DNA of 27,012 nt from positions 1-27,012 of the forward strand of contig CAYYBZ010000002.1 in NCBI GenBank assembly GCA_964470285.1, read 5' to 3'. Below the pieces are notes generated by a model. That model ran no database searches and was not told where the DNA came from. It saw only the letters and a program-made list of their open reading frames with translations. Shown here piece after piece: positions 22 through 24,928 of the stretch. Origin of the DNA: an uncultured Oligoflexia bacterium. GTDB taxonomy: Bacteria > Bdellovibrionota_G > CAYYBZ01. The position numbers and the translations under genes were made by a program. Every line of letters begins with the position of its first letter. The first letter of the stretch is position 1.

Positions 22-1374
22 TCAAAATCTTTGTTCATTGGAGCTACTTCTTATGTAACTGTCAGTGCCCTCAACATGGAAAGCATTTTCAAAAACCGTA
101 AAGTCGTCCCCCTGACCGTTGTATACGATATTATCTGTAAACTTCAAAGTTATACTTCCGCCGTAACGTGATGTACTTTGTGCGTCTTTCCTTGATAATG
201 CGTTTAGTGAAACAACTTCCATGGATCCCATCCATTCTCCGGCTCCTTTCGGCAGGCTTAAAACGGTATCGGCCAGCAGTTCCATTCCGTAAGCACCTGA
301 ACTGTCCAGCGGATCAAACGAAACTATTTCGTCCGGAAGAACATCAAAACTCCCGCTTAATGATACCCGATGAGGGGTTGCTAAGGCCTTTGAACCGTTT
401 TGAAGTACGGAATGATTACCCGAAGCATCAAATGAAAAAGCGGAAAAATAATAAGTAATTTCATTATCGAGTCTTGTTATTACAGCGTTATTACCCGCTC
501 CGGAGTATACTTCTATACCGTCTGAAGGTTCCGCAGGATAATCTACATCGCTTATAAAAATTTTCACTGAAGTGTTTTTGTCCCATACAAGACCTATTTT
601 TGAATCCGATGAAACTGCCCTTAGACCGGATACAGGATTTGTGCGGTTTTCGGTCTTCTTAAACCCCTGAGTATCCAAGTTATTATTCTGATTAAGTAAA
701 AGGTTATTGGTTCTAGTTTTAGGGAAATTAACGGCAACCCTATTATCGGAATTTTTATCAGACAGAGGTGAACCTTTAAGTTTACTATTTTTAGTTCTGT
801 TCGCATTATTTTGTTCTTTATCTGTTGTTTTATCCTTTATTTCCCCGCCCCCGACACGTTCTATCTGATTGCTCCTTGCGGCAGTTTCTTTTAGATTTTC
901 CTCATCTCCCTCAGCCGAATTCTTTTCCGGCTCGCCATTAAACTCCTGCACTTTATTGCTTTCCGTCAAATCATAGCTTCCCAAATTACCCAAAAAAGGC
1001 GAATAATCAGTTTCCTCTGACTGCTCACTTTCACTTTGAATTTGTTTGTTTGTTTCAGCTTCCTCTTCACCGGGCGATTCATCATGCGATGATTTTGAGG
1101 ATTTTAACGAGGGCGAAATTTTCCCCGGCGAAAACAAATCAAGGCTTTCCGTTCTTTCCGTCAAAGATTCTGCTTGACTAGCCTTTAAACGTATTTCTTG
1201 AGAATCGGGTCCGGCAATTTTTCTTTCCTGCTTCTGCTTGATTTTTAATTTTGAAGAATTCTTATCGGAGAAACCTAACAGGTCAGGATTTGAAAAAACG
1301 GTTAAATTTAAAAGGCCGACAAAACCGGCTATGCAGGCTAGAAGTATTAATATTTTCAGATATTTAATATTCAT
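22..1374 (-). CDS. Membrane-anchored/secreted surface protein: N-terminal hydrophobic anchor, low-complexity charged linker, FN3-like domain, C-terminal 'cell surface protein' domain (BtuH/LIC13355-like), possibly truncated
   Basis: 450-aa ORF with SD-like AGAGAGGG before the ATG. N-terminus ILILLACIAGFVGLLNL is hydrophobic. FN3-like segment PVSGLRAVSSDSKIGLVWD...LDNEITYYFSAFSFDASGNHS. Motif VVSL...GGSITLKFTDNIVYNGQGDDFTVFENAF. Lies directly downstream of a cobalamin riboswitch. Confidence 0.75.
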   Translation of the reverse strand: MNIKYLKILILLACIAGFVGLLNLTVFSNPDLLGFSDKNSSKLKIKQKQERKIAGPDSQEIRLKASQAESLTERTESLDLFSPGKISPSLKSSKSSHDESPGEEEAETNKQIQSESEQSEETDYSPFLGNLGSYDLTESNKVQEFNGEPEKNSAEGDEENLKETAARSNQIERVGGGEIKDKTTDKEQNNANRTKNSKLKGSPLSDKNSDNRVAVNFPKTRTNNLLLNQNNNLDTQGFKKTENRTNPVSGLRAVSSDSKIGLVWDKNTSVKIFISDVDYPAEPSDGIEVYSGAGNNAVITRLDNEITYYFSAFSFDASGNHSVLQNGSKALATPHRVSLSGSFDVLPDEIVSFDPLDSSGAYGMELLADTVLSLPKGAGEWMGSMEVVSLNALSRKDAQSTSRYGGSITLKFTDNIVYNGQGDDFTVFENAFHVEGTDSYIRSSSNEQRF

Positions 1375-1420
1375 CCACCCTCTCTTTACCTCGAAGAGTT
1401 TTACCCAGTGGTTGTTACTT

Positions 1421-1578
1421 GCAAGGCAGGTTTCCTGGCTTACGGCTTTGCCCCTTTAAGTCCTTCCCGGCTTTAAAAACCAGTGGATATGCTTTAAAGA
1501 GGATATCCGGTTACAGTGGCGGGACCGCACGGGATTTTCACCCGATTCCCTTTTAACTCATTAAAGAGCACCTTAAAA
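1421..1578 (-). promoter_or_regulatory. Cobalamin (AdoCbl) riboswitch
   Basis: The minus strand reads AGGTGC...TAAAAGGGAATCGGGTGAAAATCCCGTGCGGTCCCGCCACTGTAACC...CCACTGG...GGGAAGG...AAGCCAGGAAACCTGCC. These are the hallmark cobalamin riboswitch elements, including the B12 box at 1440-1425. A CTCTT/AAGAG hairpin (1398-1382) overlaps the downstream SD region. Confidence 0.95.
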
Positions 1579-1651
1579 GCCGTGCATAGCATTATTTAAA
1601 GACAAGAATTTGTCAAGTACAATAATTGGAAAGCCGCTCCGGCAATTATAA

Positions 1652-1879
1652 TTATCTGATCTTGCTTTTTCCGCCGGTAAAAAGTTTAACAGTTCCCCCT
1701 AATAGCCTCGTAAAAAGCCTGTATAAACCCCATACAATCATCATGCTTATCAGAAATATTATTAGTCCCAATATAATTTTCCCTATGAATATCCCTGCAT
1801 CCGACAAAGTCCATTTTTCCGGATGCTTAGTAAAAAAATCAAGAATTGTTTTCGTAATCTCTTTCATTGCTTCATTCAT
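1652..1879 (-). CDS. Small membrane protein, hypothetical
   Basis: GGAAGG SD 7 nt before the ATG at 1879. One long hydrophobic segment (IFIGKIILGLIIFLISMMIVWGLY). It explains the spurious N-terminal extension of the 1626 ORF on the opposite strand. Confidence 0.6.
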   Translation of the reverse strand: MNEAMKEITKTILDFFTKHPEKWTLSDAGIFIGKIILGLIIFLISMMIVWGLYRLFTRLLGGTVKLFTGGKSKIR

Positions 1880-1970
1880 AAACAACCTTCCGTCCCCGGA
1901 ATTGTTACACTACGACAGACTTAAGACTTTTGGAACGAAAACAATATATGATTATGCTATAGTTGAAAGC

Positions 1971-2690
1971 ATGCTTAATTATTATACGTTTGAATCCATG
2001 CAGTCGCTTTGGAACTTTTTATGCAGAAGATTTCACGAAATTTCGCTTGAATCCATCGCCGCAAGAGGTTTTTTTTCTCTGGCTTTCCCATGCGATAATA
2101 TCCCAAAGGGCCTGTATGAAGAGCTTTCCAAAAAAAAGGAATTCCAGTGGAACAAAACCCGTTTGTTCCAGGTCGATGAAAACTTTGTTAAAAAATCACA
2201 TCCCGACAACAACTTCTCATCTATAAAGAAAAATCTTATTGATCATGTAAGCATACGTCCCAGAAACACCTTTCCCATAGATGTAAGATCGGCATCCCCT
2301 GCTGATTCTGCAATAAAATACTCTGCTTCGATTTTAGAATCTTTTGATCTCAAGGAGGGAAATTTCCCGGATATCGATCTGATCTTCCTTGGTTTAGGTT
2401 CAGACGGCCGTATAGCTTCTATTCTCCCGGGATCAGAGACAGTTGAAGAGAGAAAAAAAATTGCCGTGCCCGTACATAACGAGGATGGAAAACCCGACAG
2501 AATTACGCTTACACTTCCGGTACTCAACAACGCAAAGAATATAATTTTTATTATATTAGGCAAAGAGAAGGCTAAAGCAGTATCAAAACTGATAAAAGAC
2601 AGGAATTTATCTCTGCCTGCATCCCTGGTTAACCCTTCAAATAAGCCTCCCGAGATTCTTCTTGATGAAGGTGCTTCTTCTCTGCTTTAG
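1971..2690 (+). CDS. pgl: 6-phosphogluconolactonase-like protein with degenerate active-site motifs
   Basis: DLIFLGLGSDG.IAS.LPG, RITLTLPVLNNAKNIIFIILGKEKAKAV and LPASLV match the Pgl/NagB fold. Start moved from 1626 to the ATG at 1971 (in frame; extended -10 TGcTATAGT at 1955-1963). Confidence 0.8.
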   Translation: MLNYYTFESMQSLWNFLCRRFHEISLESIAARGFFSLAFPCDNIPKGLYEELSKKKEFQWNKTRLFQVDENFVKKSHPDNNFSSIKKNLIDHVSIRPRNTFPIDVRSASPADSAIKYSASILESFDLKEGNFPDIDLIFLGLGSDGRIASILPGSETVEERKKIAVPVHNEDGKPDRITLTLPVLNNAKNIIFIILGKEKAKAVSKLIKDRNLSLPASLVNPSNKPPEILLDEGASSLL

Positions 2691-3172
2691 GGTGTGGATC
2701 TTCTAAAGCCTATCCTGTGAAAAGGATTAACAACCGCAGTTGCTACGTTTTTTAAATGTGCATTTACTCTCTTGATATATCTAACTATTAAAGTATAGGC
2801 AATTATTCGCTTATCAACCATTTCCTTGCCGCTTAACCCATCACTCTTAAAAACTTCGCTTATCTCAGAGTCACATTTTTTACCGATTCCCGCATATTGA
2901 GTTTCAAGATTACTTCGGCTGATTCCCTTCTCGGTTTGTATGTATGAAAAACCGTGATAAATCATTTCAAAAATGACCTCCTTGCTATTTTCGTCTTCAT
3001 TTTCCAGGATTATGTTGTCTTTAAGTTTATATGTTCGATGTTCGTATATCTGAACAACGGGATAGGATTTGAATTTTCCCGGAATCTTTTTTTTCATCAA
3101 AGTAATGGCAAAAGCATCGTCAGAATTACTTTTGTTTAACCTGCCTGCTTTAGTTTTTTCAGGCAGAATCAT
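2687..3172 (-). CDS. Hypothetical protein
   Basis: 161-aa ORF filling the gap between pgl and the tRNA-Leu promoter, with a 4-nt convergent overlap with pgl. No motif recognised; start uncertain. Confidence 0.6.
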   Translation of the reverse strand: MILPEKTKAGRLNKSNSDDAFAITLMKKKIPGKFKSYPVVQIYEHRTYKLKDNIILENEDENSKEVIFEMIYHGFSYIQTEKGISRSNLETQYAGIGKKCDSEISEVFKSDGLSGKEMVDKRIIAYTLIVRYIKRVNAHLKNVATAVVNPFHRIGFRRSTP

Positions 3173-3299
3173 TCTTTTTATAAACCATCCCTCCTTAAAT
3201 CAACTTGTTGTTTTTACAGTTCTTTTCAATCATTTACAATGTATTTTTTACAGGGGTTCTTAGTACAAAACTATGCAAACCCGGAGAATAGTCAAAGGC

Positions 3300-3328
3300 T
3301 TGCAAATATTGAATAATTTGAATAAAAT
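3300..3328 (+). promoter_or_regulatory. Sigma70-type promoter for tRNA-Leu/tig
   Basis: TTGCAA-N17-TAAAAT followed by a GC-rich discriminator GCGCGG, as is typical of stable-RNA promoters. Confidence 0.65.
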
Positions 3329-3375
3329 GCGCGGACTTAAAACTCCTGTTGACTATTGGCTTAATTGCTTTATAA

Positions 3376-3457
3376 GCGAGGGTGGCGGAACTGGCAGACG
3401 CGCTGGACTTAGGATCCAGTGGGTAAAACCGTAGGGGTTCAAATCCCCTCCCTCGCA
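3376..3457 (+). tRNA. tRNA-Leu(TAG)
   Basis: GCGAGGG/CCCTCGC acceptor stem, anticodon arm CTGGA-CTTAGGA-TCCAG, long variable arm, GGTTCAAATCC T-arm. CCA is not encoded. Confidence 0.97.
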
Positions 3458-3499
3458 TTATATTTTTTTTAAAGCACTTTAAACAAAGGATTTTTTACA

Positions 3500-4840
3500 A
3501 TGAAACACAGTATTGAAAACAAATCGGATGTTGAAAAGGTAATAAACGTCGAGATTCCAAAAGAAAAAATAAATAAAGAGATTGAAAGCACCTTTGAAAC
3601 CCTTAAGAAAAACGCACAGATAAAGGGCTTCAGAAAGGGAAAGGTTCCCAGAAATGTCCTGGAGATGCATTACAAAGAGCAGGTTCATTCAGACGTAATG
3701 AGTAAATTAATTAATGACAGCTACTCGAAAGCGCTGGATGATGAAAAACTTGAACCTGTCTCCTACCCTCAATTCGACGCAGACAAGTTTGAGCCTGACA
3801 AGGACTACACCTATAAGGCAACCGTACAGGTTAAACCTGGAATTAATCCCGAAAATTACGAGGGGCTGGAGCTTACCCGGGAAAAGGTTGAAATTACGGA
3901 AAAGGACGTTGAAAACGTAATAAATCATTTAAGAGATTCACATGCCGTTTTAAAAATCAAGGACATAGAAACACCCGGCGAGGGAGATTTCGCAGTCACA
4001 GAAGTAGAAGCCTACGTTGACGGCAAACTTTTAACCCCTGAAAACCAGAAAACACAAAATATGCATATAGGAAGCGGGCTTGTTAATCCTGACATCGAGA
4101 AGGCACTTAAGGAAATGAAAAAGGGGGATCAAAGAACCGTAAAGTCAAAGATTGACAAAGACTTTGAGGATAAAAAGTATGCAGGTAAAGATACCGAATT
4201 TAAAATTAAACTTAAGGAAATAAGAGAGCGCGTACTGCCTGATATCGACGACAACTTTGCAAGAAGCATGGGCCCGTATAAGGACTTAAAGGACTTAAAA
4301 GATCAGGCTAAAGAGCAGATAAAAACACAGAGGGAAAACACATCTAGGGTAAAGCTTCAAAACCAGGCATTTAAAAAACTCATTGAGATAAATACTTTCG
4401 AAGTGCCTTCGGTTATGGTTGAAAACGAGAAGAATTACATGATCAATGAGTTCAAGGCCCGCATGTCCAGAAGAAGAATGCCCGAAGAGGAACAGAAAAA
4501 ACAGATTGAAAAATCCGGCAAGGAATTTGACGAGGAAGCCCTAGACAGGGTTAAGAAATACTTACTTTTAGAGGCGATTGCAAAAAAGGAAAAGATAAGA
4601 GCTGACTCCCAGGAAATAGAAAGTAAAATGCAGTCAACGGCAAAGGGATTAAACGTTCCCATCAATCAGATCAAGGAGTATTACAGCAAGGGAAACGCCC
4701 TTGCTGAGCTTAAGGGTCAGATTGTTTCCGAAAAAACGCTTGATTTTGTCATCAGGAACGCTAACATTAAACTGGAACCTGCTAAAACCCACAAAGAAAG
4801 CGGAGATAAAAAAGATGGCGCTGATTCCAATAGTGGTTGA
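3500..4840 (+). CDS. tig: Trigger factor
   Basis: Signature GFRKGKVP, central FKBP-like domain, 446 aa, upstream of clpP-clpX. Confidence 0.97.
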
Positions 4841-5414
4841 ACAAACCCATAGAGGTGAGAGGTCGTATGACATTTATTCAAGGCTTCTAAAAGACAGAAT
4901 TATATTCTTAGCCTCTGAAATTAATGACGACATAGCAAATCTAATAATCGCCCAGCTACTATTCCTTGAATCAGACGATCCGGATAAAGATATAAACTTC
5001 TATATAAATTCACCGGGCGGATCCGTTTATGCAGGATTAGCCATTTATGATACCATGCAACATATCAAACCCGAGATTTCAACTTTCTGCGTAGGAATGG
5101 CCGCAAGCATGTCGGCCCTTTTACTGGCTGCCGGGGAAAAAGGGAAACGCTTTGCCCTTCCCCATTCAAAAATCCTTATACATCAGCCGATGGGAGGTTT
5201 TAAGGGACAGGCATCGGATATTGATATTCAGGCTCGTGAAATCTTGAGCCTAAAGGAAGAATTGAGTAAAATTCTGGTTAAGCATACAAGACAGCCAATG
5301 GATAAAATAATTAAGGATTCCGACCGTGATTTTTACATGACAGCACAGGATGCAAAGGAATATGGTATAATCGACAGCGTTGTAATTAAGAAAAAGGCCA
5401 TAATCAAAAAATGA
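4815..5414 (+). CDS. clpP: ATP-dependent Clp protease proteolytic subunit
   Basis: Start corrected to [11 protein letters not shown] at 4815. Motifs [28 protein letters not shown] and HQP. Confidence 0.98.
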
Positions 5415-6667
5415 AAAAAAGAGAAGATACAAATAGTACGATGAGCTGTTCCTTTTGCGGTAAGAGCAATAAGGAAGTTAAAAAACTCATTGCCGGCCCG
5501 ACGGTTTACATTTGTGACGAATGCATTGAGCTTTGTAACGACATTATAGCTGAAGAAGTAGAGAGAGAAGAATCACGCCAGGTTAAAACACAAATTCCCA
5601 AACCGTATGAAATAAAAGCTTTTCTTGATGATTATGTAGTAGGTCAGGACAGAGCCAAAAGAATTCTGTCCGTTGCGGTTTACAATCATTATAAACGGAT
5701 AGACCATAAAGCAACCGATGTTGAACTTCAAAAGAGCAATATACTGCTACTAGGGCCGACCGGAACAGGTAAAACATTGCTGGCACAAACCCTGGCCAAA
5801 TTCCTAAACGTTCCTTTTGCAATGGTGGATGCAACCACGCTTACCGAAGCCGGATATGTCGGAGAAGACGTTGAAAATATTATCTTAAATCTTTTACAAA
5901 ACGCCGAATTCGATATTGAAAGGGCCCAGAAAGGCATAGTTTACATTGATGAAGTCGATAAAATCTCAAGAAAATCAGACAGCCCCTCTATCACAAGAGA
6001 CGTATCCGGAGAAGGTGTTCAGCAGGCGCTTTTAAAAATACTTGAGGGAACCGTTTCGCATGTGCCTCCAAAAGGCGGCAGAAAGCACCCTCAACAGGAA
6101 TATATCCCCGTTGACACTACAAATGTTCTTTTTATTGTCGGAGGTGCATTTGTCGGGCTAGACAGCATAATTGAAAAGAGAGTTTCGCACACAAAAATGG
6201 GATTTACCGCAAATATAGAAAGCAAAAAAGACAGAAAAATCGGGGAGATACTCAAAAACACGCAACCCGATGACCTTTTAACTTACGGACTGATACCTGA
6301 GTTCGTCGGAAGACTGCCCGTAATAGCAACTTGCCACGAGCTTGACAAAGATGCCCTTATTCAGATATTAACCAAACCGAAAAACGCTCTTATAAAACAG
6401 TACAAAAAGCTCTTTGAGCTCGAAAAGGTTGAGCTCAAATTTGCTCAAGGGGCAATCGAAGCCGTTGCAAAAACAGCGATAGAAAAAAGCTCGGGCGCAA
6501 GGGGACTTAGAAGCATTCTTGAAAACGCACTATTGGAGATAATGTATGAGATCCCCTCACTTAGTGATGTTTCAGAGGTTGTAGTCAATCAGGAAGTCAT
6601 CACCAAGGGAGAAAAGCCGCTTTTAGTTTACCAAAAGGAAAAGCGCAAAGAAGCCGAGTCCGCCTGA
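5411..6667 (+). CDS. clpX: ATP-dependent Clp protease ATP-binding subunit ClpX
   Basis: C4 zinc finger CSFC...CDEC, Walker [32 protein letters not shown] overlap with clpP. Confidence 0.98.
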
Positions 6668-6710
6668 TTAAATAACTCGATCACCCCTTTAACCTACGAG
6701 GATGCATTAG

Positions 6711-9164
6711 ATGCAAAAGTCTGTAAACAATCTTTCGCGTGAAAAACCCCTACTTCCGCTAAGAGACGTCGTTATCTTTCCGTATATGGTAATGCCTCTT
6801 TTTGTCGGCAGGGAAAAATCCATAAATGCCCTTGAAACTGCCATGCAGGGCGACACTGAAATTATACTTGCGTCTCAAAAAAAGGCCAAAACGAATGACC
6901 CCAAAGAAAGTGATATTTATCCTGTCGGTACGTTAAGTTCCATAATCCAGTTATTAAGGTTACCGGACGGCACGGTAAAAGTTCTTGTGGAGGGAAAAAA
7001 AAGGGTTTCCGTTTCAAAATTCATCATCGACGATAAGCATTTCCTTGCCGATTATGAAGAAATCGAAAACGAAACCGATCAAACTGTTGAAAGCGAGGCG
7101 TTGATCAGATCGGTACATTCGACCTTTGAAACATATGTAAAACTGAACAAAAAAATGCCGCCTGAAATGCTTTTAGCTGTTGCAAATATCGAAGAAGCCG
7201 GAAGACTTTCAGATACCGTAGCATCACACATTAATCTTAAGCTTGAACAAAAACAGGATATTTTAGAAACATTTAACGGTACTCAAAGGCTTAAAAAGCT
7301 TTTGGAACTGATGCAGTCGGAGATTGAGATACTTCAGGTGGAAAAGAAAATACAAAACCGAGTTAAAAGGCAGATGGAAAAAGCTCAAAAGGAATATTAC
7401 TTAAACGAGCAGATGCAGGCCATTCAGAAAGAGCTCGGTGGAAAAGATTCCGTACTTTCGGAACTTATAGAACTTGAAGAAAAAATTGCAAACAAGGGAA
7501 TGTCAAAAGAAGCCGAGGAAAAGGCTCAAAAAGAGCTGCAAAGACTAAAGGCCATGCCCCCCATGTCCGCTGAATCTACCGTATCGAGAAATTACATAGA
7601 CTGGCTGATTTCTATCCCGTGGAAGGAATCTACAGAAGACAAACTTGACATTGATAAGGCCGAAAAGATTTTGAATCGAGATCATTACGGCTTAAAGAAA
7701 GTAAAAGAAAGAATTCTTGAATACCTTGCTGTTCAATCTCTTGTTGAAAAGGTTAAAGGTCCTATTTTATGTTTCGTGGGTCCGCCCGGTACCGGGAAAA
7801 CATCCCTGGCAAATTCCATAGCAACCGCTCTGGGTAGAAAATTCGTCCGAATGTCCCTTGGAGGAGTTAGGGACGAAGCGGAAATAAGAGGACACAGAAG
7901 AACCTATATAGGTGCGCTTCCCGGTAAAATTATTCAGTCAATGAAAAAAGCAGAAACCGTTAATCCGGTTATACTTCTCGATGAAGTCGATAAGATGAGC
8001 ATGGACTTCAGAGGAGATCCCTCAAGCGCGCTTTTGGAAGTGTTAGATCCCGAGCAAAATCATACATTCAATGATCATTTTCTGGATACCGATTATGACC
8101 TTTCAAAAGTAATGTTTATCACAACGGCAAATTCGCTGCATAACTTACCGAGAGCATTGGAAGACAGGATGGAGGTTTTAAGACTTCCCGGATATACCGA
8201 GCTTGAAAAACTGCAAATCGCATCAAAACATCTTGTACCCAAACAGGTTAAATCTCACGGTTTAAAGGAATTAAATGTCAAATTTAATGAAAAAAGCATT
8301 AAAAGAATTATCAGGCTTTATACAAAGGAAGCCGGTGTAAGAAATCTTGAAAGGGAAATAGCCGCTGTTTGCAGAAAGGTTGCAAAGGAAGTAATAAAAC
8401 ACGGTAAAAACTTCTCAATGAAAGTAAGCACACATACGATTACAAAATTCCTGGGCCCCTTGAGATTCAGATACGGCGTAGCTGAAGACAAAAATACTGT
8501 CGGGGTTGCTACCGGTCTGGCATGGACAGATGTCGGCGGAGAACTTTTAAGCACCGAAGTATCGATTATGCCCGGCAAGGGAAAACTAACCGTTACGGGA
8601 AAACTCGGTGAAGTTATGCGGGAATCATCTCAGGCAGCAATGAGTTATGCAAGATCAAGAGCGGGTTCACTGGGACTTAAAAAAGATTTTTATCAGAATA
8701 TAGACATACACATTCATATTCCCGAAGGGGCAATTCCCAAAGACGGCCCTTCAGCGGGAATTACAATGGCAACAGCCATAATAAGCGCTTTAACAAAAAT
8801 ATCGGTCAAAAGAGATATCGCAATGACAGGTGAAATAACGCTTCGCGGTAGAATTCTTCCCGTAGGCGGTTTAAAGGAAAAGATTCTGGCCGCCCACAGG
8901 GGAAGGATTAAAACGGTAATAATTCCCAAAGAAAATGAAAAGGACATAAGGGAAATCCCTTCAAAGATAAAATCCGAGGTAGAAATTCTTACGGCAGATC
9001 ATATGGATGACGTTCTTTCAAAAGCACTTGTACTTCCAAATCCTTCACTTTTTAAGGAAAAAATTCATACAATGGATTTGGATATTTATGATAGGCGTAC
9101 ATCCGGTACTCCCGGGAGAATAAGAAGAGACAAGGCTATAGACAACAGACCGTTTAACCATTAG
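6711..9164 (+). CDS. lon: Lon protease (endopeptidase La)
   Basis: N-terminal [31 protein letters not shown], catalytic PKDGPSAG and GGLKEK. Confidence 0.98.
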
Positions 9165-20783: not shown

Positions 20784-21956
20784 ATGTATAAAATCCCTAT
20801 GAGAAGTGCAGTAATAAATCACCGGGCAATGCTTTCGGACAGAATAAGAATGAACGCCTACGGTAAAGCCATAAGGAAAACAGTAAAAAAGGGTGACGTA
20901 GTATGCGACATAGGTACTGGCAGCGGTATTTTAGCATTCCTGTGCCTTCAGGCCGGAGCAAAAAAGGTTTATGCGATTGAAAGAAACTCAATAATCAAAG
21001 AGGCTAAAAAGCTGGCCAGAATCAATAAAATCGACAAAAGAATAGTTTTTCTACACAAAGACTCATTAAACGCAAAACTCCCTGAAAAGGTTGATGTCCT
21101 TATTACTGAAACACTCGGAGTATTCGGAATTGAAGAAAACATACAAAACACACTCATAGACGCCAAAAGGAGATTTCTAAAACCAAAAGGTAAAATCATT
21201 CCTTCAAGCCTTGAACTTTTCATTTCCCCTGTGGAATGTACAAACTTCTGGGAAAAAAACTATGGGCTTTGGAAAAACAACTATTACGGAATGAACTTCT
21301 CATCAATATTCAATGAAGCAACCACAAGAAGGTTATCTTTTAACGGCAAATCCGAGGATTTAAAAATAATTTCTTCGCCTAAACCCGTCGTCTCGATAAA
21401 CTTTATTTCACTTAACAAACCAATTTTCAGTTTTTTAAAAACTTTTACGGCACAACAAAGCGCCCACCTGCACGGCTTAATAGGTTTTTTTAAAGCCCGT
21501 CTCTGTAAAGGGGTAAACATTTGTACATCCCCTTCTAGACCGCGCACTCACTGGCAACAGTCATTTTTCCCTTTGAATGACAGTTACAAAATTAAAAAGA
21601 ACGACAGCATCAGAATAAAGGTTATTTCCCTGCCCTTCGATCAGAAATTTTACTGGAATTGGAATGTACAGATAAAAAGAAATGATAAAACCGTCGCAAG
21701 ATACTCTCAAAGTGATTTTGACTTCAAATCAAACAAGAAATTTCTGCAAAAAGACGAAGACAGGCCTTCCCTTTCAATTGATGGTCGCATATCAAAACTT
21801 ATTCTGGGACAATTCGACGGACATAAGACAGTTGAAGCTATCTCCAGGAATGTTCTAAAGAAATTCCCGTCTAAATTCAAGAATATGAAAAACGCAAAGG
21901 CCTATGTAAAAACTCTTATGATCGGTAAAACAGTTAAAAGACCAAATGATCATTAA
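20784..21956 (+). CDS. Protein arginine methyltransferase-like class I SAM methyltransferase with a C-terminal PqqD/RRE-like domain
   Basis: LSD..RM.AY, motif I VCDIGTGSGIL, post-I VYAIE, double-E loop ETLGVFGIEE, THW loop RTHWQQ, tail ILGQFDGHKTVEAISRNVLKKFP. Confidence 0.8.
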   Translation: MYKIPMRSAVINHRAMLSDRIRMNAYGKAIRKTVKKGDVVCDIGTGSGILAFLCLQAGAKKVYAIERNSIIKEAKKLARINKIDKRIVFLHKDSLNAKLPEKVDVLITETLGVFGIEENIQNTLIDAKRRFLKPKGKIIPSSLELFISPVECTNFWEKNYGLWKNNYYGMNFSSIFNEATTRRLSFNGKSEDLKIISSPKPVVSINFISLNKPIFSFLKTFTAQQSAHLHGLIGFFKARLCKGVNICTSPSRPRTHWQQSFFPLNDSYKIKKNDSIRIKVISLPFDQKFYWNWNVQIKRNDKTVARYSQSDFDFKSNKKFLQKDEDRPSLSIDGRISKLILGQFDGHKTVEAISRNVLKKFPSKFKNMKNAKAYVKTLMIGKTVKRPNDH

Positions 21957-21980: not shown

Positions 21981-22061
21981 ATGACCGTTGCAGGATCGGT
22001 CGGATATCTGGCACCTGAACAAAACAAAAGAAGATTTCATAATTATGGCAATGGTTTTTAA
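21981..22061 (+). CDS. Putative 26-aa small ORF MTVAGSVGYLAPEQNKRRFHNYGNGF
   Basis: ATG at 21981 and TAA at 22059-22061. Weak SD-like GAAGTGA. It fills the intergenic gap and its first half is GC-richer than the flanks. Below the ORF-track length cutoff. Confidence 0.35.
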   Translation: MTVAGSVGYLAPEQNKRRFHNYGNGF

Positions 22062-22771
22062 TGAATGATATGATATTTTCAGACATGAAAAGATATTTAA
22101 CCTTATGTATAGTAACCCTTTTTCTTGTTTCATGCACTAACGGCAAATCCAAGGGCTCGAAAGATCTTCTTCCAAAAAAAATCGGTGATTCATGGGGTTA
22201 TGTAAATTCCAAAAATGAAACGGTTATAGAACCCTCTTTTGAAGCCGCCATGAATTTTCAGGGGGGATTGGCACCGGTAAAAATTAATAAAAAATGGGGC
22301 CTGATAAATAAAAGGGGAATCACGGTCATAAAACCCCGTTTTGACTCTATCGGGGGATTTTTCTACGGCCTATGCGTAGTAGAACTTAACAATAAATTCG
22401 GCTTTATTGATGAACAGGGAGAGGTAGTCTGCCCGATTAAATATGAAAGCGCCGGAACGTTTGAAGGCGGCCTGGCCCCGGTCAAGCTGGGCGGCAAATG
22501 GGGATATTTAAACAACCGATGCAATATGATAGTTAAACCTCAATTTGATTCTGTTACACAGTTTAAGAGCGGCATAGCAAGCGCAGCCTCGGACTCCAAA
22601 TGCGGATACATAGATAAAAACGGAATGTTTTTCATTGAGCCGCAATTCGAAAAATGCGAAGCATTCATAAACTCCCGTGCCAGGGTAATAAAAGACGGAA
22701 AGTGGATTGAAATCAGCAAAACAGGCAAACCTGTTTTCGATGAAAACCAAGCAGAGCAAGAACACAATTGA
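22061..22771 (+). CDS. WG-repeat (KWG) lipoprotein
   Basis: Repeated F..GLA.V...KWG.IN..G..VI.P.F units; lipobox LVSC. The start may be 22085 (MKRYL). Confidence 0.9.
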   Translation: MNDMIFSDMKRYLTLCIVTLFLVSCTNGKSKGSKDLLPKKIGDSWGYVNSKNETVIEPSFEAAMNFQGGLAPVKINKKWGLINKRGITVIKPRFDSIGGFFYGLCVVELNNKFGFIDEQGEVVCPIKYESAGTFEGGLAPVKLGGKWGYLNNRCNMIVKPQFDSVTQFKSGIASAASDSKCGYIDKNGMFFIEPQFEKCEAFINSRARVIKDGKWIEISKTGKPVFDENQAEQEHN

Positions 22772-22875
22772 TAAGATTGAGTTTTTTCTCAGAGTCTTTT
22801 CTTGTTAGGGTTTTCAAAAAGAGATATCATTGTAATTTGTAAATTCATATAACAATCAAATCTTTCGGAGGGGCT

Positions 22876-23883
22876 ATGAAAAAACTTCTTTATTTAATTC
22901 TTGTATTTAATATCTTTTTATTTCCTGCATGTTCGAATGACGACGATGACAACCGGATTACAAGTACGATGTTTCAGGATGCAGCTGCAGATACCGCACC
23001 GGTCTTTGAAGTTGTTGAGGGTCTTCTCAAAACCGACATTCACGGAACACTTTATGAATTTAGCTGGGGTAATGTAAATTACGAAATATTCAATTTAATG
23101 CGTGAATACGATAATGCAATTCATGAAGGAGATGTCGGAATCGACAACATGTATAAAGCCCTTTATCAGGCAGGCTCTTTTTTTCAAGGGGCGGTTAGTC
23201 AATGCACATCAATAACGGAGAGCTCAATAACTCCTCCTTTCAATTTCGGAAACACGTACACTTACAACTGTGCCGGCAATAATGAAACTGAAGAGCACGG
23301 TTTTGCCGTTAAGCAGACAACAGATGAGGTAACAGGCATTATAGGATGGCGCGTTTATAATTATGACGGGGCCGGATCAGATGAAAAGGGAGTACTTGAA
23401 GGTTATTACAATTCGGCAACCGGTGAGATCAGCCTCGACCTTACAGCTTATGTATACTACGCTACAACCGATGATTACTCAATGAGAATAGAACTTGAAG
23501 GTAATGAGCTTACTCATGAATTTACAATAAGGCTTTATAAATACACCGGCGGCGGATATAGCATTTCAATAATAGGAAATGGGATTTCTCAGGGCACAGG
23601 CAACTATTTCCTTTTTAAAATTCAGGATACCAATGCTCTTTCTACTCCCAAATATTTCTGCTATGAAGCAAGCGATGTCAATCAGGAATTTCTCCAGACA
23701 AAAGCTGAAGAAGACTATACAGGAGAAGACTCTGCATCTGTACCCGCTGAATGTTCAACCTACAAAACCGTTGTAGATGCCATGACCTTTTTTGAAGTAT
23801 CCGATGTTCCGGTAGAGGCCTCGGATTTCAACACAGGCATAACGGATTATGAAGGCACAATTTATTTAAGCGGCATAGAATAA
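22876..23883 (+). CDS. Hypothetical acidic lipoprotein
   Basis: SD GGAGG, signal MKKLLYLILVFNIFLFPAC, beta-rich acidic body. No family recognised. Confidence 0.8.
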   Translation: MKKLLYLILVFNIFLFPACSNDDDDNRITSTMFQDAAADTAPVFEVVEGLLKTDIHGTLYEFSWGNVNYEIFNLMREYDNAIHEGDVGIDNMYKALYQAGSFFQGAVSQCTSITESSITPPFNFGNTYTYNCAGNNETEEHGFAVKQTTDEVTGIIGWRVYNYDGAGSDEKGVLEGYYNSATGEISLDLTAYVYYATTDDYSMRIELEGNELTHEFTIRLYKYTGGGYSISIIGNGISQGTGNYFLFKIQDTNALSTPKYFCYEASDVNQEFLQTKAEEDYTGEDSASVPAECSTYKTVVDAMTFFEVSDVPVEASDFNTGITDYEGTIYLSGIE

Positions 23884-23892
23884 TTCTATTTA

Positions 23893-23934
23893 AGGGGAGC
23901 GGAAACAACAACACGCTTTCGCTCCCTTTCATTT
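23893..23934 (+). terminator. Possible intrinsic terminator/hairpin
   Basis: GGGAGCG...CGCTCCC stem followed by TTTCATTT. Confidence 0.45.
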
Positions 23935-23941
23935 AAAAATT

Positions 23942-24928
23942 ATGTTCTCCAAACAAACTGTCAAATTTTATCTAACCCGAATCCTTTTGGTAATCCTCCT
24001 TTCCTCATGCAAATTCGGAAGCAGAGACCATCTATACCCTATAATAGAAAATGAAAAAGTGGGTTTCATAAACAGATACGGCCAAGTACTGATTAAACCA
24101 AAATTTGACAGTGCATGGTTCTTCAAGGAAGACTTTTCAAGAATAAAAAGAGGCGAGAAATACGGCTACATTAACAAAAGGGGGAAAGTTGTTATTAAAG
24201 CCGTATTCGACGGTGTAAGAGACTTTTCTTCAGGTGTGGCAGCAGTCAAACTTGATGATAAATGGGGATACATCGATACTGAGGGCAAGATAGTCATCAA
24301 ACCCGAATATAACTACGCATGGGACTTCATATCAAAGCGTGCAAAAGTAAGGACAGGCAAAAAATATTCCTATATCGATCTGAAAGGACGCAAAATAACC
24401 GATGAAAAGTTTGACTGGTGTGACGATTTCTCTGAAAAAATGGCCCAGGTAAAAATAGGCCACTTATGGGGATATATTAACACAGCGGGCGTTATGCAAA
24501 TAAAACCGCAGTATTCCTGGAACGGGCCCTTCAGTGAAGGTTTGGCACCGGTTGAAAAGGACGGGAAATGGGGATTCATAGATAAGAACAATCATTTTGT
24601 AATTGAGCCTAAATATTACTGGGCAAATTCATTCTCAGAAGGATTGGCTCATGTATATAACAATAAATCATGGGGAAGCATCGATAAGAAGGGAAATGTA
24701 ATAGTAGATTTCAAATTCGAAAAGATCCTTGATTTTTCCCACGGTTTTGCCGCTTTTAAAGTCGATGAAGTCTGGGGATATCTCAATAAGCGCGGTCAAA
24801 TAGCCATAAACCCCGAATTCGAGGAAGCTGAGCCCTTCATGGGAGACCTTGCTCCCGTGCAAGACGACGATAATCTTATTTATATTAACAAAAAAGGAAA
24901 AAAGATCTGGGCAGCTTCCAAAAAATGA
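23942..24928 (+). CDS. WG-repeat (KWG) lipoprotein
   Basis: About 8 repeats of the F.EGLA.V..DGKWG.ID..G..VI.P type; lipobox LSSC. Confidence 0.9.
   Translation: MFSKQTVKFYLTRILLVILLSSCKFGSRDHLYPIIENEKVGFINRYGQVLIKPKFDSAWFFKEDFSRIKRGEKYGYINKRGKVVIKAVFDGVRDFSSGVAAVKLDDKWGYIDTEGKIVIKPEYNYAWDFISKRAKVRTGKKYSYIDLKGRKITDEKFDWCDDFSEKMAQVKIGHLWGYINTAGVMQIKPQYSWNGPFSEGLAPVEKDGKWGFIDKNNHFVIEPKYYWANSFSEGLAHVYNNKSWGSIDKKGNVIVDFKFEKILDFSHGFAAFKVDEVWGYLNKRGQIAINPEFEEAEPFMGDLAPVQDDDNLIYINKKGKKIWAASKK

Follow-up and report, generated by a model that had tools for sequence, protein, structure and literature searches.

Protein arginine methyltransferases (PRMTs) are usually held to be a eukaryotic invention, whose type I members—PRMT6, PRMT1, PRMT8, PRMT3, PRMT2, and CARM1—consist of a Rossmann domain for S-adenosylmethionine (SAM) together with a beta-barrel bearing a dimerisation arm and are associated with chromatin or RNA-binding proteins. 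Fusions of an RRE, the recognition element for peptides made on ribosomes and modified after translation (RiPPs), to tailoring enzymes are already known. A PRMT-fold methylase within a RiPP pathway is known as well in the form of TsaG, which enzyme is required for the bis-N-methylation of histidine in thiostreptamide S4 (PMC8153245). The object of the present analysis is a gene on the forward strand of a 27,012-nucleotide stretch from the uncultured Oligoflexia contig CAYYBZ010000002.1—that entire stretch being referred to here as the window—whose product possesses a complete PRMT core, far beyond what chance would produce, followed by a C-terminal tail related to PqqD, and whose family has TsaG as its closest characterised enzyme. 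Since the relatives of this protein are found in clusters for peptide natural products, an arginine of such a peptide is the probable target of the window enzyme; and the particular form of that proposal which we favour, at just short of an even chance, is an enzyme that N-methylates arginine under the guidance of a leader and acts in trans, its substrate being a Cys-rich peptide modified by a radical SAM enzyme. The parts of the gene, with residues numbered from the first ATG, are the following:

20784-21956, forward strand: coding sequence of the whole enzyme, PRMT-fold methyltransferase plus PqqD-like tail: 390 amino acids from the ATG at 20784, or 385 from the ATG at 20799
20820-20864, forward strand: PRMT-specific N-terminal helix, H13-x-x-M16-L-x-D19-x-x-R22-x-x-x-Y26, aligned to HEEMxxDxxRxxxY of PRMT6
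20889-21206, forward strand: Rossmann-type SAM-binding domain, residues 36-141, with D42-x-G44-x-G46-x-G48, the post-I residue E66, and LKPxGxxIP
21108-21137, forward strand: double-E loop, E109 to E118 (E-TLGVFGIE-E), on the two glutamates of PRMT6
21213-21713, forward strand: PRMT beta-barrel and dimerisation-arm region, residues 144-310, with the Pfam PRMT_C match
21546-21554, forward strand: THW loop, T255-H256-W257, on the T-H-W of PRMT6
21714-21764, forward strand: linker, residues 311-327, of low confidence (predicted local distance difference test, pLDDT, near 65), containing a single short helix
21765-21923, forward strand: PqqD-like C-terminal domain, residues 328-380, with helices at 332-342, 350-360, and 368-379

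When residues 9-285 were compared by phmmer with all the chains of the Protein Data Bank (PDB), the E values were 2.6e-34 for PRMT6, about 1e-31 for PRMT1 and PRMT8, about 1e-27 for PRMT3 and PRMT2, 5e-27 for CARM1, 2e-20 for PRMT7, 3e-18 for PRMT9, and 7e-11 for PRMT5, which ranking places the window protein closest to the type I enzymes; the comparison with PRMT1, PRMT5, and PRMT7 that an earlier note on this DNA had proposed is thereby answered in favour of a PRMT. Residues 144-281 scored 59 bits with the Pfam PRMT_C model, whose cut-off is 27. The structure predicted by AlphaFold2 from 46 family sequences (mean pLDDT 91) retrieved through Foldseek the structures of PRMT6, PRMT1, PRMT8, CARM1, and yeast Hmt1 at E values of about 1e-30 and template-modelling (TM) scores, normalised to the target, of 0.76-0.87. 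Among those 46 family members the three glycines of motif I (D42-I-G44-T-G46-S-G48) are invariant; E66, D19, R22, and W257 are each conserved in 44; and the columns of E109 and E118, the pair that in PRMTs grips the guanidinium, contain glutamate in 40 and 39, respectively. The window protein accordingly shares with the eukaryotic type I enzymes (E from 1e-34 to 1e-26, about 25% identity, TM about 0.8) the same two-domain core, the double-E and THW loops, and the H-x-x-M-x-x-D-x-x-R helix; and differs from them in lacking the YFxxY helix, in its extra PqqD-like domain, in being bacterial, and in having RiPP clusters as the context of its family.

The earlier note, made from the letters of the DNA, had credited the protein with the full PRMT signature set—the SAM motifs, the double-E loop, and the THW loop—and that set proved to be in register with PRMT6 and conserved throughout the family. 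The note had also taken the 9-residue spacing of the double-E loop as that of the type I PRMTs: the spacing from E109 to E118 is indeed there, but an E-to-E distance of 9 residues is usual for PRMTs in general and would be no marker of type I. The YFxxY helix that type I enzymes have is absent. As the note had further anticipated, the gene is distinct from prmA and prone to that annotation: homologues bear the NCBI name "L11 methyltransferase," which automatic name originates in the shared Rossmann SAM domain, the only part of the window protein that the Pfam PrmA model covers. PrmA as an identity was rejected on both score and architecture, for TIGR00406, with its cut-off of 183 bits, gave just 40 and matched residues 31-112 only; no full-length match of the window protein above cut-off was found with either TIGR00406 or NF001785; and PrmA, the lysine/N-terminal methyltransferase of ribosomal protein L11, while having a Rossmann SAM domain in common, has no PRMT beta-barrel, double-E loop, or THW loop, all of which are in the window protein.

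The tail retains the hallmark residues D345-G346, T349, I353, and F361-P362, and its P328-x-L330-[STN]331-x-x-[GA]334 segment mirrors the L-N-x-x-A at the beta3/alpha1 junction of PqqD; the tails of full-length homologues follow the pattern F-x-P-x-L-S-x-x-G-x-I-x(4)-L-x-L-C-D-G-x-x-T-x-x-E-I-A-x-x-L-x(3)-Y-P. When 46 homologue tails were scanned singly, 35 matched PF05402 (PqqD; E<=1, best 3.2e-5) and 15 matched PF21782, the winged helix with which rickettsial PKMT methyltransferases end (best 2.3e-4), with any further Pfam family being matched by at most six. A profile of the tail searched against the PDB sequences had PqqD at the top (5sxy, 0.007) and then PqqCD, with LynD, 3g2b, and TruD also listed; and the matches to LynD, 3g2b, TruD, and PqqD are all to RRE-bearing proteins. 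By hhalign the same profile aligned with nine standalone PqqD proteins, taken from the retrieved homologue loci, at 86.9% probability and an E value of 4e-6 over 46 columns, corresponding to alpha1-alpha3. The best Foldseek match of the isolated tail was again a PqqD, 3g2b, though a weak one (E 0.79, probability 0.95, TM 0.53); and a language-model look-up (Atlas) gave WHD_PKMT as the top named match, PqqD in 45 of 100 matches, and MftB, all below 0.9, the level from which such a match counts as more than a lead.

As judged from these profiles, the tail would be, at the level of the family, a real homologue of the PqqD/RRE superfamily without the N-terminal sheet; and because the structure models exhibit three helices and no beta-sheet, it would amount to about half of a canonical RRE. 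With PqqD and the RREs (3g2b, 5sxy, LynD, TruD, lasso B1, and MftB) it has in common the profile homology over alpha1-alpha3, the junction motif L-[NST]-x-x-[AG] that leads into alpha1, and a pattern of the form D-G...T..(E)I...L...[YF]; but the domain comprises some 55 residues instead of some 85, and the beta1-beta2-beta3 sheet is missing from its models. The proposal in the earlier note that the last 60 or so residues were PqqD/RRE-like therefore stood with respect to the helical half of PqqD, through profile homology, and fell short with respect to the window tail taken by itself, which was unmatched in Pfam; while, of the winged helix-turn-helix fold of an RRE, the three helices are present and the three-stranded sheet is not. 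Domains of the PKMT type score about level with PqqD for the tail: the rickettsial OmpB lysine methyltransferases PKMT1 and PKMT2 have, as here, a small winged-helix-type domain (PF21782) on a methyltransferase, albeit with another catalytic core and lysine as the acceptor, the scores behind that relation being weak. A search with the tail profile returned 1360 cluster representatives at E<=0.001, of which 331 reached E<=1e-10; the match was C-terminal in the best 150 of the 1360, and seven short sequences that were inspected proved to be fragments of this same enzyme, so that the domain appears to be specific to this large family.

To the gene neighbourhoods of homologues, the analysis of which the earlier note had recommended, we owe the principal evidence for a peptide substrate. 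Among 15 distinct loci, the window included (L002 and L003 being one locus, and G018 lying on the same contig as L006), 12 were RiPP clusters. Six of these (L001, L002/L003, L005, L097, L098, and L099) contained multiple radical-SAM genes, a standalone PqqD, and ScmC, with a B12-radical-SAM gene, YcaO, an ABC exporter, and NTP_transf_5 as frequent additions. Two were lasso clusters: L007, with B1 (PqqD), B2, an Asn-synthase-type cyclase, and a 59-residue precursor directly upstream; and L021, with a cyclase, an HprK-like gene, NTP_transf_5, and an ABC exporter. At L004, L006, and L019 an ABC exporter, an HprK-like gene, PqqD or NTP_transf_5 adjoined the gene; and in G022 (L013) a shorter PRMT-like gene—a 325-residue open reading frame (ORF) matching residues 12-305, with no tail seen—was followed by NTP_transf_5. 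A scan of the genome contigs yielded mostly PRMT-like genes of that tail-less kind, with only L019 and L021 being full-length among the matches listed.

ScmC is the HprK-related protein of the SynChlorMet (SCM) cassette (TIGR04249). The models of that system—ScmC, the PqqD-family ScmD, and the radical SAM/SPASM proteins ScmE and ScmF (TIGR04249-04251)—gave weak matches in the homologue loci and on contigs C174 and C255 of the source genome; and since all of these fell far below the equivalog cut-offs, the cassettes are related to SCM and not SCM proper. Furthermore, a PRMT-type gene, which the family loci carry, is unnamed among the SCM models inspected.

Beside members with a canonical pocket we found four small genes:

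L002, 5545-5805: precursor gene
L005, 1119-1343: precursor gene
L098, 1289-1486: precursor gene
L099, 1517-1678: precursor gene

These have in common the leader [W/Y]-x-K-P-x-[L/I]...P-[ED]-[EQ]-[AS]-[VIL]-L-x-x-C and Cys-rich cores that all contain arginine, the core from L099 having seven arginines in 22 residues; and no NCBIfam match was obtained for any of the four peptides. The gene neighbourhoods strongly suggest, then, that the family is a large, uncharacterised tailoring component of RiPP clusters, namely a peptide-directed arginine methyltransferase. As a separate observation, the last residue is Ser in three of the four precursors and Thr in the other, a C-terminus that would lend itself to phosphorylation by the HprK-like protein (ScmC) encoded next door, as in the paeninodin-type lasso peptides.

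The source genome, whose assembly is fragmented (462 contigs, 92% complete), contains the methyltransferase gene as a single copy along with the following items on other contigs:

C174 (L011), 2315-4777: four-gene cassette of HprK/ScmC-like gene, 58-residue ORF, radical SAM gene, and PqqD
C255 (L106), 2993-3856: second ScmC-like gene, running off the contig end
C107 (L105), 1698-6868: NTP_transf_5, ABC_tran, and ABC2 genes, divergent from a glycosyltransferase gene and a B12-radical-SAM gene (off the contig end)
C418 (L107, 1.9 kb), 573-1640, forward strand: radical-SAM/SPASM gene
C418, 1642-1902, reverse strand: gene for an 86-residue peptide, convergent with the radical-SAM/SPASM gene

In addition, C81 carries a PqqD gene and a radical-SAM/SPASM gene. 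The contents of C107 and C255 seem to be fragments of a RiPP cluster, or of several, split by the assembly. C92, which resembled a radical-SAM cluster, was rejected as such, that contig encoding the alternative heme (Ahb) pathway. The 58-residue ORF of C174 is Pro/Ser-rich and without Cys, with a leader-like K-K-I-Y-I-A-P-Q-I-R-K-L. The peptide of C418, in turn, is Gly-rich and has 11 cysteines, and its N-terminus, M-K-Y-K-K-P-E-I-H-N-L...G-K-S-D-E-P, matches the precursor leaders of L098 and L002, from which likeness we infer that this peptide would be the best candidate substrate of the window enzyme. Because the usual partners are all in the genome though unlinked to the gene, action in trans becomes concrete and plausible; of the two options that the earlier note had left, a minimal system or an enzyme acting in trans, the cluster parts and the precursor on other contigs favour the latter, with the former being unsupported.

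On these grounds we would propose the following mechanism. The core would function as a SAM-dependent PRMT-fold N-methyltransferase with its arginine pocket—the double-E loop, the THW loop, and D19/R22—intact; the tail would dock the conserved leader of a Cys-rich precursor, [W/Y]-x-K-P-x-[L/I]...P-E-E-A-V-L; and the PRMT core might then methylate a guanidino nitrogen of a core-peptide arginine once or twice, with SAM as the donor. The gene, being unlinked from the rest of the pathway in the source genome, would act in trans.

Several observations weigh against this proposal. Within the window no RiPP genes are present in the 20 kb upstream or the 5 kb downstream of the gene: the 27 kb contain no radical SAM, PqqD, cyclase, peptidase, or exporter gene—the earlier note having been correct about the lack of an adjacent cyclase, peptidase, or exporter—nor YcaO or TfuA, nor a precursor gene or core maturases beside the methyltransferase gene. 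The idea of a peptide-directed arginine methyltransferase, which that note had put forward, is thus borne out for the family by 12 of the 15 loci and remains, for a window copy with no RiPP neighbours, a matter of inference. Three loci are orphans in this sense, namely the window, L100 (P0057), and that of P0013; and P0013, the closest relative (44% identity), overlaps a gene for 180 residues that, on a contig of 3.3 kb, comes after an ECF sigma gene, which context may hint at a non-RiPP role of the sub-branch. (The genes on that contig are at 31-558, 551-1093, and 1071-2309, the function of the 180-residue product being unassigned.) The window protein and P0013 are on long branches and so may have changed function. 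As to the tail, Pfam found nothing relevant in the window tail scanned alone (285-390 or 320-390), with PF05402 being unmatched even at E 10, and both structure models of the domain contain three helices and no strand. With respect to the core, the YFxxY helix, which in the type I PRMTs closes over SAM, is absent from the window protein—which has only 7-12 residues ahead of H13—and across the family alignment, and a PRMT fold is no guarantee of an arginine target, the histidine methylated by TsaG being a case in point (PMC8153245). Finally, the core of the candidate peptide of C418 has one arginine only. Complex predictions for the cognate pair of L099 (P0061 plus the 53-residue precursor) and for the window enzyme plus the C174 peptide both gave 0.00, a value equal to that of the controls; and these scores weigh neither way, being no evidence against binding.

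If, as one alternative, the protein were a true arginine methyltransferase for one or more folded proteins of the cell or its envelope, outside any RiPP pathway, the C-terminal winged-helix domain would be devoted to the recognition of a substrate or partner, which role has been proposed for the C-terminal domain of the rickettsial PKMT lysine methyltransferases; more specifically, the lineage of the window protein and P0013 would have left the RiPP world in order to methylate a protein. We consider both the general and the specific version unlikely, though they draw support from the orphan context of the window, from the ECF sigma gene ahead of P0013, and from the orphan P0057; from the long branches that part the window protein and P0013 from the other members; and from the PF21782 matches in 15 of the 46 tails, with a PKMT-type domain above PqqD in the Atlas look-up. 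Moreover, the methyltransferase gene was found in none of the 16 genomes of the same phylum that were searched, whereas NTP_transf_5 was present in seven of those 16, so that parts of the pathway occur without the methylase; and over all the 41 genomes searched the gene was in five and NTP_transf_5 in 19, the methylase being a rare accessory gene. Against a cellular protein as the target, the pairing of the window protein with P0013 (99 in the Shimodaira–Hasegawa-like approximate likelihood-ratio test) is itself nested, with a support of 99, in a clade whose members, where the context is known, are nearly all in radical-SAM RiPP clusters, and all the sequences of that clade have S-E-x-x-G-x-F-G-[LI]-E-E-N and T-H-W; the PqqD-like hallmark residues are kept in the window protein; a matching precursor and parts of a cassette are in the genome; and no candidate for a protein substrate is evident.

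If, alternatively, the substrate were a peptide and the acceptor not arginine, the methyl groups might go to a histidine, as with TsaG and TvaG, to a lysine, to the N-terminal amine, or to a C-terminal group, which outcome we regard as improbable. The precedent comes from the thioamitides: TsaG and TvaG are, as in the family of the window protein, PRMT-fold methyltransferases inside a RiPP cluster, although with histidine as acceptor and in a context of YcaO, TfuA, and flavoprotein genes. Beyond the requirement for TsaG in the bis-N-methylation of histidine (PMC8153245), a TsaG homologue from Streptomyces mutomycini (L028, 7482-8900), whose cluster comprises APH, HopA1, flavoprotein, YcaO, TfuA, PhyH, and peptidase C1 genes, is 29% identical to the window protein over 282 residues (E 8e-43) and matches both PRMT_C and PrmA in Pfam, for which reason the thioamitide histidine methylases can be understood as PRMT-fold enzymes with an altered double-E loop. 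That homologue, however, has D...D-M in place of the E...E-E of the window protein, and a 170-residue N-terminal extension in place of its C-terminal tail. Within the family itself, the double-E and THW motifs have been deleted or replaced, and the PqqD-like tail kept, in P0117, P0100, P0108, P0113, P0098, and P0111, which are distant members at lasso- or HprK-linked loci and include the lasso member of L007; from the aligned sequences the family would appear to have at least two pocket types, and the pocket type follows the tree. Given such losses in the TsaG homologue and the distant members, an intact pocket cannot be taken as a given, and its retention in the window protein argues for arginine: E109, E118, and T-H-W are exactly at the positions of PRMT6, and all four precursors beside canonical-pocket members contain arginine.

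A minimal two-gene system, in which the substrate would be encoded immediately downstream, with YLAPEQ for docking and KRR as the acceptor, would depend on one doubtful feature:

21981-22061, forward strand: ORF of 26 residues, G-S-V-G-Y-L-A-P-E-Q then K-R-R, 24 nucleotides past the methylase stop

We judge that system highly improbable. The ORF does have a suitable position and strand, and its Y-x-x-P-E resembles the Y-I-A-P-Q, W-K-K-P-E, and Y-S-S-P-Q of precursor leaders; but the motif is loose, with some 25 chance matches in the small ORFs of 11 loci, and fits only if Q is tolerated where the leaders have L or I, while the second leader motif, P-E-E-A-V-L, is missing, no Pfam match and no similar ORF at the homologue loci were found, and the GxxGYLAPE stretch is also like the activation-loop motif of protein kinases. 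No Shine-Dalgarno-type sequence is evident ahead of its ATG, which is a weak objection, as the methyltransferase ATG is likewise without one. The stop codon of this ORF overlaps the first ATG of the ORF that follows. No more credible would be free L-arginine or another small guanidino compound as the substrate, by analogy with SznE, a bacterial methyltransferase acting on free arginine in streptozotocin biosynthesis (cited in PMC12637814); for though such enzymes exist and the window gene stands alone, the family has a conserved extra domain of the peptide- or protein-binding type and is found in RiPP clusters, not small-molecule ones, with no small-molecule tailoring genes adjacent.

Returning to the leader-guided arginine methyltransferase, our literature searches—on PRMT with RiPP or RRE, on arginine methylation with RiPP, on ScmC, on SynChlorMet, and on bacterial PRMT homologues—retrieved no paper on this family; and in the literature thus searched we found neither a report of side-chain arginine N-methylation of a ribosomal natural product nor an intact-pocket PRMT core joined to a helix-only relative of PqqD. 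That a large bacterial PRMT-type family forms omega-N-methylarginine in ribosomal peptides, with a helix-only RRE relative as its guide and with the window copy as a free-standing, trans-acting member, is a possibility that we advance tentatively and place well under an even chance. Were this to be true, the reaction would be a new one for the engineering of peptides, a docking domain plus a short peptide would provide a simple soluble model of substrate recognition by PRMTs, and the window copy would show the enzyme working as a module away from its cluster. A PRMT family of bacterial peptide clusters would also bear on the origin of the eukaryotic PRMTs, and a helix-only relative of the RRE would serve as a test of which RRE parts leader binding requires. 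The automatic annotation as "ribosomal protein L11 methyltransferase," for its part, conceals these genes from genome mining. Because it stands alone, the window copy is less informative than those inside clusters; it nevertheless belongs to the members with a canonical pocket, and its own genome offers a candidate substrate that can be traced.

With respect to its surroundings, the methyltransferase gene has upstream, in divergent orientation, a gene for an SBF-type transporter, and farther upstream in the window are tig-clpP-clpX-lon and an AbiEii pair. ClpX was not diagnostic as a taxonomic marker, its closest named matches, at about 71% identity, being metagenome-assembled genomes of Myxococcota or "Deltaproteobacteria." Downstream on the same strand, after 105 nucleotides, come genes for WG-repeat lipoproteins and then those for an epimerase, UbiE/MenG, and UbiA; the first of these groups (22061-24928, forward strand) is composed of two lipoprotein-like genes with the WG repeat (PF14903) on either side of a gene for 335 residues without a Pfam match, and no link between these lipoprotein-like genes and the methylase was found. 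The methyltransferase ORF itself is uninterrupted over its 390 codons, the opposite strand is rich in stops, and no rival long ORF covers 20784-21956 on either strand. As to the start, the public gene call (P0002) begins at M6 (20799) and gives 385 residues, and this second ATG is the better fit to the family alignment, in which most of the members have seven residues ahead of the conserved His.

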